From: an uncultured Nitrospiraceae bacterium
GTDB lineage: Bacteria > Nitrospirota > Thermodesulfovibrionia > Thermodesulfovibrionales > UBA6898
Assembly: GCA_963811165.1 (NCBI GenBank)
Contig: CAWEQH010000004.1
Coordinates: 448,001 to 512,000 of the forward strand
DNA length: 64,000 bases
Direction of reading: 5' to 3'
A program made the position numbers. Shown here one piece after another: positions 21,001 to 27,000 of this stretch. The number at the start of each line of letters is the position of its first letter. Within the stretch, counting starts at the first letter, position 1.

Positions 21001-24000
21001 CGCGCTAAGTATCCATAACAGCATCGTCCCGCCCACTATCAACCTCGACAACCCTGATCCGGAATGCGATCTCGATTACGTACCTAATGCGGCGAGAAAG
21101 GGAGATATCGGGGTTGCACTGTCGAATTCTTTCGGTTTCGGCGGCACGAACGCCTGTCTCCTGTTTAAAAAATTCTCAAATTGACCGACCCTGAAACAGA
21201 ACGGAAGTTAGAAGACCTCGAAAACAAACTCGGCTATTTTTTCGGGGACAGGGAACTTCTTTCCGAGGCCCTCACGCATAAATCCTACTATCACGAAAAC
21301 AGGTCGAAGGCCGCCCCATACAACGAACGTCTTGAATTCCTGGGCGACTCGGTCATAGGGCTGGTCGTTGTGGAATATCTCTTTCTCCTCGAAGAAAGGT
21401 ACAGCGAATCGGTCCTTGCAAAGATGAAGTCCTACCTTGTCTGTGAAGCGGTCCTGGCCGATATCGCTTCATCGATTTCTCTCGGCAAGTATATCCTCCT
21501 TGGAAAGGGAGAGGATTCGACGGGCGGCCGGATCAAAAAGTCGATCCTTTCTGATACCTTTGAGGCGGCCATAGGGGCCGTATATCTTGACGGCGGGTTT
21601 CCGAAGACCCGGGAGATCGTTCGCTCATTTTTTAAAGGCAGGGTCGATAAGGTGATCAAAGAGGGAGAATTTTACGACTACAAAACCGAGCTTCAGGAAA
21701 AAACGCAGCTCGACTACGGCACCCTTCCCGAATACAGGGTCATTAAAGAGGAGGGCGTAGAACATAAGAGGGTCTTCACCGTGGCCGTGTTCCTGGAAGG
21801 CAGGGAACTCGGGGTCGCCTCCGGCAAGAGGAAGAAAGAGGCCGAGGCCCTGGCTGCAAAAGAGGCGCTCGAAAAGCTAAAGGGATAGAGAGCGAGTGGC
21901 CATGATCATGGTACAATAACAGCCAGTGGATATACACCATCTCAGGGTATTTGCATCTGTCTTCAAACACAGAAGCTTTTCAAAGGCTTCCGAGGAGTTG
22001 CACCTGACTCAGCCGACGGTGAGCGACCATATCAAGGCGCTTGAAGAGGAGCTCAACTGCAAGCTCTTCGACCGGCTCAGCAGAAAGATTATCCCCACAA
22101 AAGAGGCCGGCGTTCTTATTGGGCGCGCCGGTGAGATCATCGAGAAGGTCGAGGGCATTCAGGGACTTTTGGGGGAGTCCAGAAAAGAGCTTTCCGGCCA
22201 TCTCATCATCGGCGCAAGCACAATCCCTGCAACGTATATCCTTCCGGGTCTCACCGCGTCATACAGGAAAAAACATCCCGGCGTTTTTTTCGAGATAGTC
22301 GTTTCGGACTCGCGGGGGATAATAGATAAAGTCGCGGGGCACGATCTCCTTGTCGGCATGGTGGGGGCCAAGCTGGATAACGGGCAGGTCCATTACACCC
22401 CTTTTCTTGACGACGAGCTGATAGCAATAGCAGCGCCTTCCCCGGCAAAGATCAGGGGCCTCGGCCTCAGAGAGATTGCGGCACTTCCAATGGTCATGCG
22501 GGAACAGGGGTCAGGCACACGGAGGGAGTTTGAAAAGATACTCCTAAAGGAGGGTATCGATCCGCAGCAGCTCAGCATTGTCGGCCTGTTTGGCTCTACC
22601 GATGCGATTAAACAGGCGGTCAAGGAAGGGATGGGCATCTCGGTTATTTCCCGCCGCGCAGTGCGGGATGAGCTTAAGTGCAACATGCTTCGGGAGATCA
22701 AGATAAAGAATGCCGATATGAAACGGCAATTTTTTATCGTCACCCACAGGAAAAGAACGCTCCCGCACATCTACAGAGGCTTCCTTGAATTTCTTCTTCC
22801 CGGTTCCCAATAGAGTTTCGGCGTAATTCCCCGACTCAATTATTATACCCGCCAGACTGCAATCCATTCGACCGATAGGTAGTGCCCTATGGATAGATAT
22901 TATCTATTGGTAATATAGATTAAAGATATCTTATTATTTGACCGGTAGGGTATCCGGAAATGACGATGGATACCTATGAAGCACTACGAAGAGAGAATGT
23001 ATAACGCGAAGAGATATAAGGGCTATACCTGAAGCGGGGGGCAAGGGGTTGGTGCCCCTCCCGGTCTGCAAAACCGGCATATAGCCGAAAATAGGCTATT
23101 GTGGGTTCGATTCCCACTGTTCCCTCTCCATCTAAACTCTCACGTCTCAGACGTTTAAATCTAATTATAAAAGGAGGATCAGAAGATGGCGGAAGAAAAG
23201 AAGATGACCGTGGAAGAGGTGAATGAGTATATGAAGCAGAAATGCGGCTTTGTGCCGAGAATGTTTCAGATCATAAACACGGTAACGCCCGAGCCCGGAA
23301 GGACGTTTGCCGACTTTTATGCGAGTATTTTCGGAGACGGCGCATTGTCGAAAAAAATAAAGGAACTGATGTTCATGTCCGGCGGAGTCGCCTATTGCTC
23401 TCCGAGATGTATCATTCATGTCATCCCGGCGATTAATGCGGGAGCGACGACGGGAGAGATATTCGAGGCCGCATCTGTCGGCATGATTTTGGCAGGTTTC
23501 GTGCCCGGCGGCCCGGGAATACCCTATGCCTTCGAATATGCCCTTAAGTGTCTCGATATTGAGGCAAAATACAGGAAGGGCGAAAAATGGGAGTATCTGC
23601 CCGCGCCCAGGTTCGATCATGGGGTGTTCTGAGCCGGCTCTCAAATATAGGGAATAATCTTGAGACGATTAAGGAGCATTAGGGGGATATATGCGTAATA
23701 CCAAGACGTCATTCCAGATAAGAGTCCTGTTGGTCCCACTGGTATTTCTCATCATGGTAATGGGAACATCATCTGTTTCCGCAGAGAACACGTATAGAAT
23801 CATTTCAACCGGGCAGCTTAAGACGATGCTCAGCGCAAAGGAAGATTTCACTCTTATCGACGCCAGGACAAAGGATGAATTCGACGAAGCGCATATAGTC
23901 GGGGCGATCAACATCCCTGAAAAAAACTTTGAAGCAATGATGTCCGCCCTTCCGGCAAACAAAAACGTCCTCCTGGTCATCTACTGTAACGGAACGAAGT

Positions 24001-27000
24001 GCGGCAAGAGCAAAAAGGTTGCGGCAAAGGCAGAGGCAGCGGGATACACAAACATCATGCTCTATGCGGAGGGGTTCCCGGTGTGGGAAGAAAAGGCAAT
24101 GCCTATCAGCGCAGGACCTGATTACCGCAAAAAGATTGAAACAACGAAGCTCAACCCGGCGGAGCTGAAAAAGATGATCGACAGCGGATCAAAGGACTTC
24201 GTCATTGTAGATGTCCGGGATGAAACAGAATACGGCGAGGGGCACATACCCACTGCCATAAACATTCCGGTAGAGACTTTCGCTGTCAGGTCGGAGGCGC
24301 TGCCGAAAGAAAAGAAGATCGTCGTTTACTGCAATACCGGAGGCAGAAGTTATACTGCCTATAGAAAACTGGTGAAGCTTGCCTATCCGAACATCTACCA
24401 GACGCTATTTGCCGATTGGAAAGAGTCCGGGCAGGCGGTGGAAAAATAGGAGGTAGAAATGGTTATAGACGCAAGAAATCAGGGCTGTCCGAAACCTGTG
24501 ATGATGGCTGAAGAAGCCCTCTCGAAAATCACGGAAGGAATTGTCGAGGTCATTGTTGACAATGAGCCTTCTGCAGATAACCTTGCATGGTTTGCAAAGA
24601 GCAATGCCTTCTTTTCTGAGACAATCAGGGATGGTCGAAACTGGCGGGTGAAGATAGTGAAAGGGTATGCTTGTGCGCCTGCGCCTGAAGCAGAAAAAGC
24701 ACCGGAGGCGAAAAAAGACCTGCTCATAGTCGTGGGCACGGATACGATGGGGAAGGAAGAAGAACTCGGCAAGATTCTGATGAAGGGCTATTTTGAAACG
24801 ATGAAGACCTACAAGCAGATACCTGACGCGATCTTTTTTCTGAATGCCGGCGTAAAGCTTACCACTACAAATGCCGACATCTGTCCCATTCTGAAAGAGA
24901 TCGAGACTATAGGTGTGGAGATATATTCCTGCGGAACATGCCTCAAACACTACGGACTTGAAGCACAACTAAAGGTGGGCCACAGGGGGACGACGAACCA
25001 TATTGTGGAAGGCATGAAGGACTTTAATAAGACTGTCTGGATAGGATAGCTAAAAAAGACCCCTACTCTCAAAGCGTTGACACCCTAGCGGTTCGGGATA
25101 TACTTAGTAATAAGAAGCCTGCGATATGGCATCAGTATGAGGGGGAAAACGGCAAATAACCGCTAAGGAGGTCTTTATGAAAAGAATAGTCAGCTTCATT
25201 CTATTAAGTATCCTGCTCGTCGCATTAGGTGGATGTTTATGGGTGCATGAACGCGACGGGGGCGAGCGCGATCGCGGGGAGCGCTATGAACATGAACGCG
25301 GCGAGCATGAGCATCATGAAATGGAAGAGAGGCGGTAAGAATCTGTCGTCAATATTTTGAAATTAGCGATCTCAAAACTGGATTCATAACTCCCCTTAAC
25401 CCCCTCTTATCTTAAGAGGGGGGGAGGCGAAGCCTTGGGGCATTATTTCAAAGAGGGGAGCTACTGGATCGAGAGTCCGTTAACGGTAACGATTCCTAAG
25501 CCGCTTATCGTCACCGTGCCGTGAACCGCTGAGAACCCGGTTGCAGGCGAGAATGAAGAATCATAGCCTCCGTTAAGGGTCACATCGAAGTCATTATCGA
25601 GTGTCAGGTCTTCATAAAAAGTAATCGACTGGATGTCGAGGGTGTCGGCAGCGGCGATTGCGACGTAGGCGTCACTAATGCTGGAATAGAAGGAAACGTC
25701 ACCTACCTTCTTTACAAGGGCAGTAGGATCGCAGGTCGAAAACCTGAAGGCCCCTATCCGAGTATGCCAGTTGCCGCTGTCGCCATTTGTTTGGCTGTCG
25801 TAATATTCATTGACGTACCAAAAAGTGCAATCGTCTGACGGATCGACACTCATCGAGGAATAATCGCCCCAACGGTCGCAGGGCGCCCCACCGCAGTTGT
25901 TTGTCTGAGATCCCGTTCCCGAAAATAGCACGGTTTCGGTCTGCGGAAGCTGGTTAAAGGGATCGGATGCGAGCCTGCCTGAGTAAGCGATGCTTGGATA
26001 ATTAGGCGCAGTGCCGTTTGAGGTGCTATAACCCAGGGCCATGTTGCCGTCCTTGTCCGCCGACAGGCTCCCCATCCAGCGATAGAGAGTGATATCCGGC
26101 GCATAAATCTGCTCCTGGACAGGAGTTGTCTTGATGGTGCCTCCTGACACATCGATCTGTGACCACTGCGGCCGGACTGTGGAGGTCGGTGACGTCATTA
26201 CACTGTGGACCACCCATAGGGATTCGCTGGACCCGATCTTCCGATAGGGTACTTTCTGCATAAGCCGGTCTCCTAAACTGTCCAGCTTCGTTGTCGTACT
26301 CGGCTGGGGCACGATACTCGGAGCGCTTAAGAAAGCGTCATTATACGCTGTTTGAGATACCAGGACAGGCGCTGCATTAAACGTTCCGACCGAGCAGTTG
26401 CTGCTGGTCAAAAACGTGCGCACTTCAAATCCCCAATTGATCTGAGATTCCGAGACAAAGTAGTTCGGTGTTCCGGCGGGCGGTAAAGAACCCGGAGAAG
26501 CGCCGAGTATGGTGCTTGGTATCATGGTGAAGATGGGGTAGGTAGGGTAGGGAAGGAACCCTATCGTCCAGCTGAGCGTGTTGCCGGCCTCGAGGTCGCT
26601 CCGGCTGAAGGCGGCATAGAGCACGCCGACAAATGGGTTCACTGGGTCGTTGGTAAACTCATTTGCTGCCATATAGAGGCAGTCCGGCCATACGCCGAAT
26701 TTGGGATAATCGTTCAGCGCTCCCACAGGGGGGCGGCCAGTTCCCCCGGGGTCCATGCGAAGAGGATAGAGCCACCATCCGCCTGAAACAGGGTCACTCG
26801 TTTTCGATACCGCAATGCATTCGTAGTAAGGCGAAATAGGATTGGAGCCGCTGAAGCCAAAGGCAAAATGGGCGAGTATCCAGCGGTCGACTAAGGGATC
26901 GTAGACCACGATCGGATCACCTTGGGAGTTGCTTTTACAAGGGTTTGATCCGCCTGAGCCCCAGAGGTTGTCTTCGGTAAAGGACGCCAAAAGAGTCCCT

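Follow-up and report, generated by a model that had tools for sequence, protein, structure and literature searches.

A selC* tRNA gene at the head of a candidate selenium-starvation operon in an uncultured Nitrospiraceae bacterium

Why does a genome that holds an ordinary tRNA-Cys and an ordinary tRNA-Sec carry a third tRNA, with a cysteine anticodon on a tRNA-Sec-like body, and under what conditions would it be made? We approached this question at a locus in an uncultured Nitrospiraceae bacterium, in a stretch of 64,000 nt that is called the window hereafter (GCA_963811165.1, host genome G000; CAWEQH010000004.1, positions 448,001-512,000, forward strand; contig position 448,001 is position 1). 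A preliminary description had reported the gene order lysR, tRNA, CMD/AhpD-like gene, double rhodanese gene and yedF, a separate canonical tRNA-Cys (C1:280702) and tRNA-Sec (C8:443233), and selA, selB and selD in the same genome, all of which were found again; the host selD contains one in-frame TGA. It had also proposed that the tRNA is controlled by selenium status and lets SelB deliver Cys. This core idea is retained here, carried by an operator, Cys-only backup genes and a UGA-ended leader, but three points that accompanied it (an open role for the tRNA, an objection to its GCA anticodon, and the AhpD-like protein as a carrier) are abandoned. With a probability of roughly 0.7, we regard the locus as the head of a selenium-starvation operon that yields a Cys-recoding tRNA and selenium-handling proteins. 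The DNA context of selC* suggests an emergency part made when selenium is short, and the operator and the leader would be two selenium-sensing switches, apparently undescribed.

The selC* type of tRNA-Cys is already known (PMC5389517). The earlier statement that its role has been open since its discovery is outdated, since reviews, in the parts available to us, cite Vargas-Rodriguez 2018 for GCA-type selC* being charged by CysRS, bound and delivered by SelB, and recoding UGA as Cys (the Desulfotomaculum nigrificans tRNA in E. coli; PMC11415595, PMC13582414). Because the GCA type is reported to recode UGA, the objection that a GCA anticodon does not read UGA is no refutation. The division of UGA decoding between tRNA-Sec and tRNA-ReC was still described as unclear in 2026, in the part of PMC13582414 at hand.

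The tRNA of the window is genuine, and is a selC*/tRNA-ReC of the Nitrospirae type (Table 1). ARAGORN reported a tRNA-Cys(GCA) at 23037-23126, and the Rfam tRNA-Sec model scored 57.3 bits. The GCA anticodon, U73 and tRNA-Sec-like body given previously are correct, but the length of 90 nt is not; the gene spans 95 nt with an encoded CCA, and U73 is position 23127. The 7-bp drawing by ARAGORN also gives way to the family fold, an 8/5 type whose 6-bp D-stem carries a UGGU loop. A selC* tRNA combines U73 with either a GCA or a UCA anticodon, and the window copy has the former. The length lies above the 80 nt taken as the lower limit for a tRNA-Sec-like body, and the variable arm is long, the acceptor extended and the D-stem long. 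The host has all of selA, selB, selC and selD, and a tRNA-Sec pattern was found in 67 of 75 selC* genomes. GCA, U73, the body, and coexistence with tRNA-Sec and selABD are shared with the Nitrospirae-type selC* of Mukai et al.; two relatives (L021 and L022) match, letter for letter, an entry in the portion of their table available to us. Canonical tRNA-Sec identity, which needs G73 and a UCA anticodon, was rejected. So was the deltaproteobacterial 8/4 type with an A51a bulge and SelB*/CysRS*, since the T-stem here has 5 bp, no CysRS* adjoins and no second selB lies downstream; as reported before, the host has a single selB, the other match being of EF-Tu size. Our search patterns demanded the GCA loop, U73 and an encoded CCA.

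Table 1. Features of the selC* locus (window positions).
Feature	Position	Strand	Basis
LysR-type regulator, LysR_Se/HrsM-like, presumed operator binder	21926..22813	+	NF040786, 290 bits
Candidate operator box 1, perfect palindrome ATAGAT-N3-ATCTAT (T-N11-A)	22893..22907	.	matrix; 34.4 bits
Candidate operator box 2, weaker, 22 bp past box 1, within promoter spacer	22915..22929	.	matrix
Predicted sigma-70 promoter: weak -35 TGGTAA between boxes; -10 TATTAT at 22932-22937	22908..22937	+	inferred from relatives
Leader ORF M-Y-N-A-K-R-Y-K-G-Y-T-UGA; UGA at 23030-23032, 3 nt before G1	22997..23032	+	
selC*/tRNA-ReC: GCA, U73, G1-C72, 8/5 acceptor/T branch, long variable arm	23036..23130	+	ARAGORN, Rfam, fold
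CMD/AhpD-like protein, CxxxC; passenger copy	23186..23632	+	PF02627
Double rhodanese, hydrophobic N-terminus	23691..24449	+	PF00581 twice
YedF selenium-metabolism protein	24459..25049	+	TIGR03527, 193.8 bits

The sites of LysR-type regulators typically consist of a T-N11-A palindrome and, over the promoter, another box of lesser strength. This layout is present in the window, where a candidate two-box LysR operator (22893-22929) overlaps the predicted promoter of selC*. Relatives carry TTGACA-like and TAAAAT-like hexamers at the places of the window -35 and -10, and a scan for consensus promoters left that of the window unmarked. When the matrix was trained on sites other than those of the window, box 1 was the single high-scoring site in the host (the next scored 17.4 bits). 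That second site, at C10:773614, overlaps the start region of an unrelated-looking gene. A genome-wide regulon in the host was rejected in favour of the window site alone.

Specificity of the operator was assessed by counting sites of at least 16 bits within 400 bp upstream. Among held-out selC* genes, 15 of 36 had a site upstream and 0 of 36 downstream; none was present before 20 tRNA-Sec genes or 46 other tRNA calls of the host. A pattern that contained no part of the tRNA gave 26 matches in 151 genomes and 0 in controls, and 20 of these 26 had a selC* within 1.5 kb (12/18 among the matches not used in its design). The matrix also reached 16 bits at 7 of 28 Desulfobacterota selC* loci, to which it had not been trained, at 2 of 17 Bacillota loci and at 0 of 6 others. 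No site lies within 400 bp of 35 of the 96 non-redundant Nitrospirota selC* genes, of which 5 have one further upstream in the available DNA. In 36 of the 61 box-bearing loci the predicted transcription start falls at or beside G1, so that the operon transcript would begin with the tRNA. A gap of 37 nt separates rnc from lysR, which precedes the operator and is therefore probably outside the regulated transcript.

The short frame that ends in UGA just ahead of the tRNA may form a further layer of control. If the UGA were read, the frame would run across selC* to a TAA at 23156-23158. A bacterial SECIS presents an apical G at a set distance from the UGA and is bound by domain IV of SelB. The D-loop U21-G22-G23-U24 stands in the register of the host's formate dehydrogenase (FDH; C8) and hydrogenase SECIS hairpins, and might be bound by SelB. 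Such a leader occurs at 8 of 96 Nitrospirota selC* loci, and its ribosome-binding site is weak; 15 of the 23 leader loci examined came from a pattern demanding ACCTGA. In Desulfobacterota, G-[FH]-T-UGA lies within 450 nt ahead of selC* in 13 of 28 loci, and G-F-T-UGA/SECIS leaders precede Cys-only FDH and MvhD copies, whose genomes also encode TGA-containing paralogues (5/5 for FDH and 5/5 for MvhD). UGA leaders follow the same promoter layout. An ATG stands 8 codons up in 28 of 35 Desulfobacterota rows, while in the Nitrospirota clade a start is found at -7 or -11 in 15 of 20 leaders and the last 8 codons are free of in-frame stops in 20 of 20. A conserved start and an open frame ending at the sensor codon, as in an attenuator, are thus seen in both groups.

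An attenuator would also need mutually exclusive RNA folds set by the ribosome. The leader codons in Desulfobacterota pair with the post-SECIS strand better than shuffled sequences do in 33 of 35 cases, the alternative partner doing so in only 20 of 35. In the clade of the window, the fold invaded by the leader is the minimum in 2 of 8, the window not among them. Inspection by eye found no compensatory double changes between leader codons and variable arm, and seven loci of the Desulfobacterota leader matched no Rfam family. In trpL, hisL and tnaC, decoding of a short leader ORF sets the fold of the RNA downstream. The leader here differs in that its sensor codon is a Sec UGA and, in the window, what lies downstream is a pre-tRNA rather than a terminator. 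A frame crossing a tRNA gene has a precedent in a tRNA-Sec nested within selB, for which coupling of translation and tRNA processing was proposed (Mukai 2021, PMC8124441, in the part available); there the frame is that of selB, whereas here an 11-codon leader enters the tRNA only if its UGA is read. In this lineage the leader probably lets translation gauge, as an added check, how much Sec-tRNA is available. A bolder version, which we hold tentatively and consider less likely than its opposite, is that the tRNA precursor is its own selenium sensor: the D-arm would act as SECIS for the leader UGA, SelB-dependent readthrough under plentiful Sec-tRNA would block maturation, and stalling or release would let the cloverleaf fold.

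Whether the window copy still works deserves separate consideration, because the family could act as described while this member decays. The 3' acceptor strand has 9 nt, with one extra U, in the window copy only (1/96), and a shifted acceptor register (-41.9 kcal/mol) is predicted to be more stable than two bulged ones (-40.9 and -40.7 kcal/mol). The consensus ATG of the leader is changed to AAG, and a search of a genome of the same genus (G121) found neither selC* nor a LysR orthologue. However, the operator is undamaged, and an in-frame ATG still occupies the conserved -11 codon. The assembly is prone to indels, as fabF, 2 kb upstream, is broken across three frames, and related contigs from 3 studies have one T fewer at position 23121; a sequencing error is therefore at least as likely as decay. 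We consider decay unlikely, though it is the alternative that survives best, and it is compatible with a starvation operon.

The identity of the signal was examined through the regulator and the genes under its operator. The window LysR exceeds the cut-off of 250 bits for NF040786, as the label 'selenium metabolism-associated' implied, but the label carries little weight: of the order's 151 genomes, 137 have a protein above the cut-off, and a 35%-identical paralogue at C1:551337 exceeds it as well, so NF040786 was discarded as a marker of a selenium regulator. Of 96 loci, 32 have an orthologue of the window LysR no more than 3.5 kb from selC*. It was found in 60 of 75 selC* genomes versus 38 of 76 others, counts that are not independent because the genomes are related; many of the 15 selC* genomes in which it was not found are incomplete. 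Among solved structures, the window LysR comes closest to NdhR/CcmR and to the sulfite sensor YeiE (PMC8931317; PDB 7fdf, 8sbh), whose oxyanion pocket it resembles, S96/S97/S127/R191/S195/T197 corresponding to S98/T99/S129/R192/S196/T198. In contrast to YeiE, E145, which excludes tetrahedral sulfate, is Gly (Gly147 in 29 of 29 aligned orthologues), and N126 is Asp, so that a tetrahedral ligand such as selenophosphate would fit.

Neighbour genes around selC* were counted by tblastn. The yedF gene lies beside selC* in 28 of 96 loci and the double rhodanese gene in 6 of 96; in L182 the latter stands directly under the operator with no tRNA. In relatives the operons encode SelB, YeeE/YedE, Cys-only copies of enzymes, and a double-cubane reductase accompanied by its activase. 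The regulon also includes a TonB receptor with a CU motif, as well as a B12 radical SAM enzyme, a transglutaminase-like protein and a split-Soret cytochrome, the last three having no known selenium role. In G042 the order is operator, RFCGVC hydrogenase, cytochrome b and selC*, and a 78%-identical RIUGVU paralogue with two UGA codons is encoded elsewhere; this arrangement, reminiscent of the HrsM backup regulon, may reflect control of a Cys isoform. G148 has an operator-linked Cys hydrogenase, whose Sec paralogue was not found in this 77% complete genome. The L086 hydrogenase was set aside as evidence for backup logic, since both copies of this type in its genome are Cys forms and a Sec form is absent.

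The AhpD-like protein, earlier taken for a selenium carrier, is a copy of a gene in the methyltransferase/corrinoid cluster on C8, where the 93%-identical paralogue was confirmed, and it adjoins selC* in just 2 of 96 loci. The readings as a selenium carrier and as the Cys twin of a selenoprotein were both rejected; 40 matches in 201 Nitrospirota genomes contain no in-frame stop. Membership in AhpD peroxidases or selenoprotein CMD families was likewise rejected, the motif being CxxxC rather than CxxC and all NCBIfam matches far below cut-off. Neither operator nor selC* was found among the other CMD loci listed.

These data bear on a second alternative, that the operator answers a sulfur oxyanion or a general redox signal, or that LysR activates with selenium, the link to starvation being indirect. 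The kinship with NdhR/CcmR and YeiE, the poor specificity of NF040786, and the rhodaneses, split-Soret cytochrome, transglutaminase-like protein and B12 radical SAM enzyme in the regulon would suit it, and the poor window -35 makes activation by LysR conceivable. It does not account well for an operator-linked hydrogenase that is the Cys-only twin of a two-Sec enzyme, for selB, yedF and the CU-motif receptor in the regulon, or for UGA leaders behind the same promoter layout. We rate it slightly below decay.

Could the tRNA serve mainly as a SelB-binding decoy, or as a cis-acting element where the operon starts, rather than in decoding? Its predicted place at the very start of the RNA and the wide-ranging variable arm (total length 93-132 nt) would fit. 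Yet pairing of the 8-bp acceptor and the 5-bp T-stem is kept with hardly any exception across 95 relatives, and the literature in the part available describes a clostridial homologue that decodes UGA in E. coli, which renders this role improbable. Least likely is that the tRNA receives serine, undergoes conversion by SelA and then places Sec at UGC/UGU codons marked by a SECIS, as described for the GCA-anticodon tRNA-Sec of Aeromonas salmonicida in the text available to us; the tRNA-Sec-like D-arm and long variable arm recall that precedent, but the discriminator is U and not G, the variable arm is not conserved whereas the order's true tRNA-Sec hardly varies, and induction with Cys backups would make no sense.

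A selenium-starvation operon has a parallel in the HrsM regulon of Methanococcus (PMC5322559; PMC11097638), in which a LysR regulator likewise governs Cys-only selenoenzyme isoforms and yedE-type transporters. The present system differs in being bacterial, in a binding site defined by computation alone, and in having a recoding tRNA among the targets, so that one gene can rescue all UGA codons. The text of Mukai et al., as available, has no operator, regulon or leader ORF, and its 2017 supplement text gave 0 matches to LysR, yedF, rhodanese and AhpD; these elements seem new. The searched passages of the paper defining the LysR_Se family give no binding site.

From the observed sequences, their conservation, the specificity of the operator and the composition of the regulon, we infer binding of LysR to the box, selenium as the signal, the direction of control and the part of the leader; Cys charging, SelB delivery, UGA reading and HrsM-like repression are borrowed from homologues. 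With adequate selenium, LysR_Se would occupy both boxes over the promoter and keep it off. As selenium falls, the operon would be transcribed, giving tRNA-ReC with YedF and rhodanese. CysRS would charge tRNA-ReC, and SelB would carry the Cys-tRNA to SECIS-marked UGA codons, placing Cys in SelD, two formate dehydrogenases, a hydrogenase and ArsM, which may remain partly active; the leader would add its check.

The tRNA mechanism itself is already published, and the new part is the control of selC*. For LysR_Se proteins of bacteria, the site described here supplies a first candidate for the DNA that they bind. The regulon points to unstudied selenium-starvation proteins, namely the double-cubane reductase, the split-Soret cytochrome and the transglutaminase-like protein. 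Under the bolder version of the leader's role, operator and leader would form a two-layer switch by which selenium supply decides whether UGA means Sec or Cys. Operator coordinates, regulon and UGA leader together make a conditional genetic code testable, in which UGA would mean Sec with selenium and Cys when it is scarce, and proteins predicted to carry Sec in these anaerobes may for part of the time carry Cys instead.

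The tRNA that the preliminary description had located by an ARAGORN call (23037-23126; Rfam tRNA-Sec, 57.3 bits) is present, and with its encoded CCA extends over the span in the table. The host genome also carries, as described there, a normal tRNA-Cys, a normal tRNA-Sec, selA, selB and selD. The selD gene has one in-frame TGA, and further UGA-containing genes encode two formate dehydrogenases (FDH), a hydrogenase large subunit (CGVU) and an ArsM-like protein. The window tRNA is of the Nitrospirae type of selC* (Mukai 2017, PMC5389517), whose fold in 95 relatives has the same 8-pair acceptor stem and 5-pair T-stem as tRNA-Sec. 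A ninth base on the 3' acceptor strand was found in the window copy alone (1/96). Since this base is missing from related contigs in sequencing runs X2, X4 and X6, and two frameshifts divide fabF, 2 kb away, among three reading frames, it is either a change peculiar to this copy or an assembly error. The frame changes in fabF and in a split-Soret gene at C10:721800 are likely assembly indels.

Positions of the selC* region features in the window
Feature	Position	Remark
fabF	19938-21184	
Operator box 1	22893-22907	ATAGAT-N3-ATCTAT; upstream of tRNA
Operator box 2		weaker repeat, 22 bp after box 1
Inverted repeat in leader	22949-22974	7 bp
Second short ORF start	22960	overlapped by inverted repeat
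Leader ORF	22997-23032	M-Y-N-A-K-R-Y-K-G-Y-T-UGA; counterpart of Desulfobacterota leader
selC* with CCA	23036-23130	
Promoter 3' of yedF	25077-25104	strong, sigma-70-like

Among 151 genomes of the order, a 3'-end pattern search detected selC* in 75 and gave no match in controls. Some selC* tRNAs of 119-132 nt have a much enlarged, apparently branched variable arm (loci L172, L174-L179, L196, L217-L219, L252, L253), and ARAGORN and BLAST split or overlook them. Similar tRNAs occur under Actinomycetota, Acidobacteriota and Chloroflexota labels (L037, L089, L090, L100, L121, L133, L143, L107, L035, L044, L092, L099), phyla unnamed in the consulted passages of Mukai's paper (PMC5389517); in L035, L044 and L092, UCA/U73 forms lie directly 3' of hdrA. 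At window positions 21926-23130, LysR (88%) and the tRNA (86-90%) are nearer to another family of the order than to their own (G115, G018 and G121 compared), and neither was found in a same-genus genome; horizontal transfer or loss is possible.

The role of selC* had been regarded as open since its discovery. This view no longer holds, as according to PMC11415595 and PMC13582414 the GCA-type tRNA is carried by SelB and UGA is read as Cys. The remaining question is therefore when the cell uses this tRNA (tRNA-ReC). By analogy with the homologues, charging, SelB delivery and UGA reading would proceed likewise here.

We scrutinized the region upstream of the tRNA with an operator matrix trained on 29 relatives, from which the window and the two copies closest to it were excluded. 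The window operator was the single site in the host genome (34.4 bits; next other site, 17.4). Among 40 further loci, 39 had the tRNA, leaving 36 after removal of three training members; a site of at least 16 bits lay within 400 bp upstream in 15/36 and downstream in 0/36. No operator was found at 20 tRNA-Sec genes, nor at 46 other tRNA calls in the host genome. When training loci were counted in, 61 of the 96 non-redundant Nitrospirota selC* had a site no more than 400 bp away, and the remaining 35 had none in that range. For 36 of these 61, the site began at -53 to -50, a TTGACA-like hexamer lay between its two boxes, and a further hexamer resembling a -10 element predicted a start at or beside the first base, G1. 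Judged from this promoter geometry, these tRNAs are possibly leaderless, with no RNase P cut needed. Loci with such a start include L055, L062, L120, L217-L219 and L238-L244.

The operator-only pattern gave 26 matches in 151 genomes and zero control matches. selC* lay within 1.5 kb of 20 (12/18 among those unused for the pattern) and 2.6 kb downstream of one more; four headed a rhodanese, a DoxX-like gene plus rhodanese, a B12 radical SAM gene and a transglutaminase-like gene, and one headed no recognisable gene. A contig of run X6 retained operator and tRNA with a different leader. The matrix, untrained on Desulfobacterota, scored at least 16 in 7/28 of their selC* loci; a variant operator of the same layout was seen by eye in eight more. 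Other phyla gave 2/17 (Bacillota) and 0/6 (others). In L062 a second operator (2079 relative to the tRNA) directly precedes a CU-motif TonB-dependent receptor, a candidate selenium uptake gene.

At distances up to 3.5 kb, the neighbours of the 96 tRNAs, many on short contigs, were the LysR orthologue (32), yedF (28), split-Soret cytochrome (14), double-cubane reductase (13), transglutaminase-like (11), selB (8), rhodanese (6), YeeE (6) and CMD (2); 60/96 had one or more of the set LysR, yedF, selB, YeeE/YedE and reductase in this range. Gene order in the window resembles a pared-down version of that in L075, L158 and L159 (operator, selC*, reductase, activase, rhodanese, yedF), and its CMD gene is a passenger out of a methyltransferase/corrinoid cluster. 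Reductase and activase adjoin selC* in Nitrospirota, Desulfobacterota, Bacillota and Actinomycetota (L085, L043, L064, L058, L074, L090) and are absent from the host genome. The promoter 3' of yedF lies outside the operon and precedes a small lipoprotein-like ORF.

The clearest case of backup logic under the operator is comparison genome G042, where operator, all-Cys hydrogenase large subunit, cytochrome b and selC* follow in order; a 78%-identical subunit encoded elsewhere in G042 has UGA at both N-terminal ligands. This arrangement follows the logic of HrsM, reported to repress Cys isoforms at adequate selenium (PMC5322559, PMC11097638), and by homology such repression may operate here. The window LysR keeps the YeiE-like oxyanion pocket, with Gly in place of the YeiE Glu that is reported to exclude tetrahedral ions (PMC8931317). 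Uptake-type [NiFe]-hydrogenase large subunits carry N-terminal UxxU in L197 (G033) and L202 (G042), and CxxU in L200 (G000:C10:300077); UxxU is reported for Group 4 enzymes in PMC13582414, which ties it to tRNA-ReC.

In Desulfobacterota, G-[FH]-T-UGA lies within 450 nt upstream in 13 of 28 selC* loci picked by tRNA pattern alone. In a pattern scan of 401 genomes, 66 yielded a total of 73 matches, compared with about 41 in the controls; inspection of 33 confirmed 17 as genuine, three of them seeds. In a 35-row alignment (one spurious and one doubtful row included), 28 rows have ATG 8 codons ahead of UGA, 23 have a readthrough frame of 11 codons, and a hairpin lies at a fixed distance behind the UGA. 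The leaders head selC*-selB*, reductase, yedE, HdrA, MvhD and FDH genes. Leader-headed copies of FDH and MvhD have Cys only; in 5/5 genomes tested for each, TGA-containing paralogues are also present. A leader M-x-x-F-F-G-F-T-UGA with SECIS-like hairpin and C-rich tract was seen ahead of Cys-only FDH, HdrA, MvhD, selB* and yedE in L316-L318, L325-L328, L334-L343 and L348-L367.

Of 20 non-redundant loci in the window's clade, 18 have 2 nt between UGA and G1 and two have 3 nt; 15 of the 23 loci examined came via a pattern demanding ACCTGA and a 2-4 nt spacer. A start codon is at -7 or -11 in 15/20. The leader occurs in only 8/96 Nitrospirota selC* and in 0/40 leaderless ones. That it functions in this clade is an even bet. 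The window leader has no separate hairpin; the tRNA D-loop (U21-G22-G23-U24 from UGA) is in the register of the host FDH and hydrogenase hairpins, and the D-arm might serve as SECIS, which we consider less likely than not. The second ORF start is in frame with UGA in some relatives, not in the window.

Structure, operator, regulon make-up and leader conservation were observed; LysR presumably binds the operator, with selenium as the presumed signal, and we put at about 0.7 the probability that starvation induces the tRNA. We found no paper on how tRNA-ReC is regulated, on a LysR_Se binding site in bacteria or on a leader peptide with a Sec UGA, though subscription papers (Vargas-Rodriguez 2018 foremost) and Mukai's supplement figures may hold some. 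The tRNA itself is known; its proposed regulation is new and directly testable. Given that the host's SelD is a selenoprotein and that Cys-SelD was functional in Mukai's assay (PMC5389517), this tRNA could also set selenophosphate synthesis going again.
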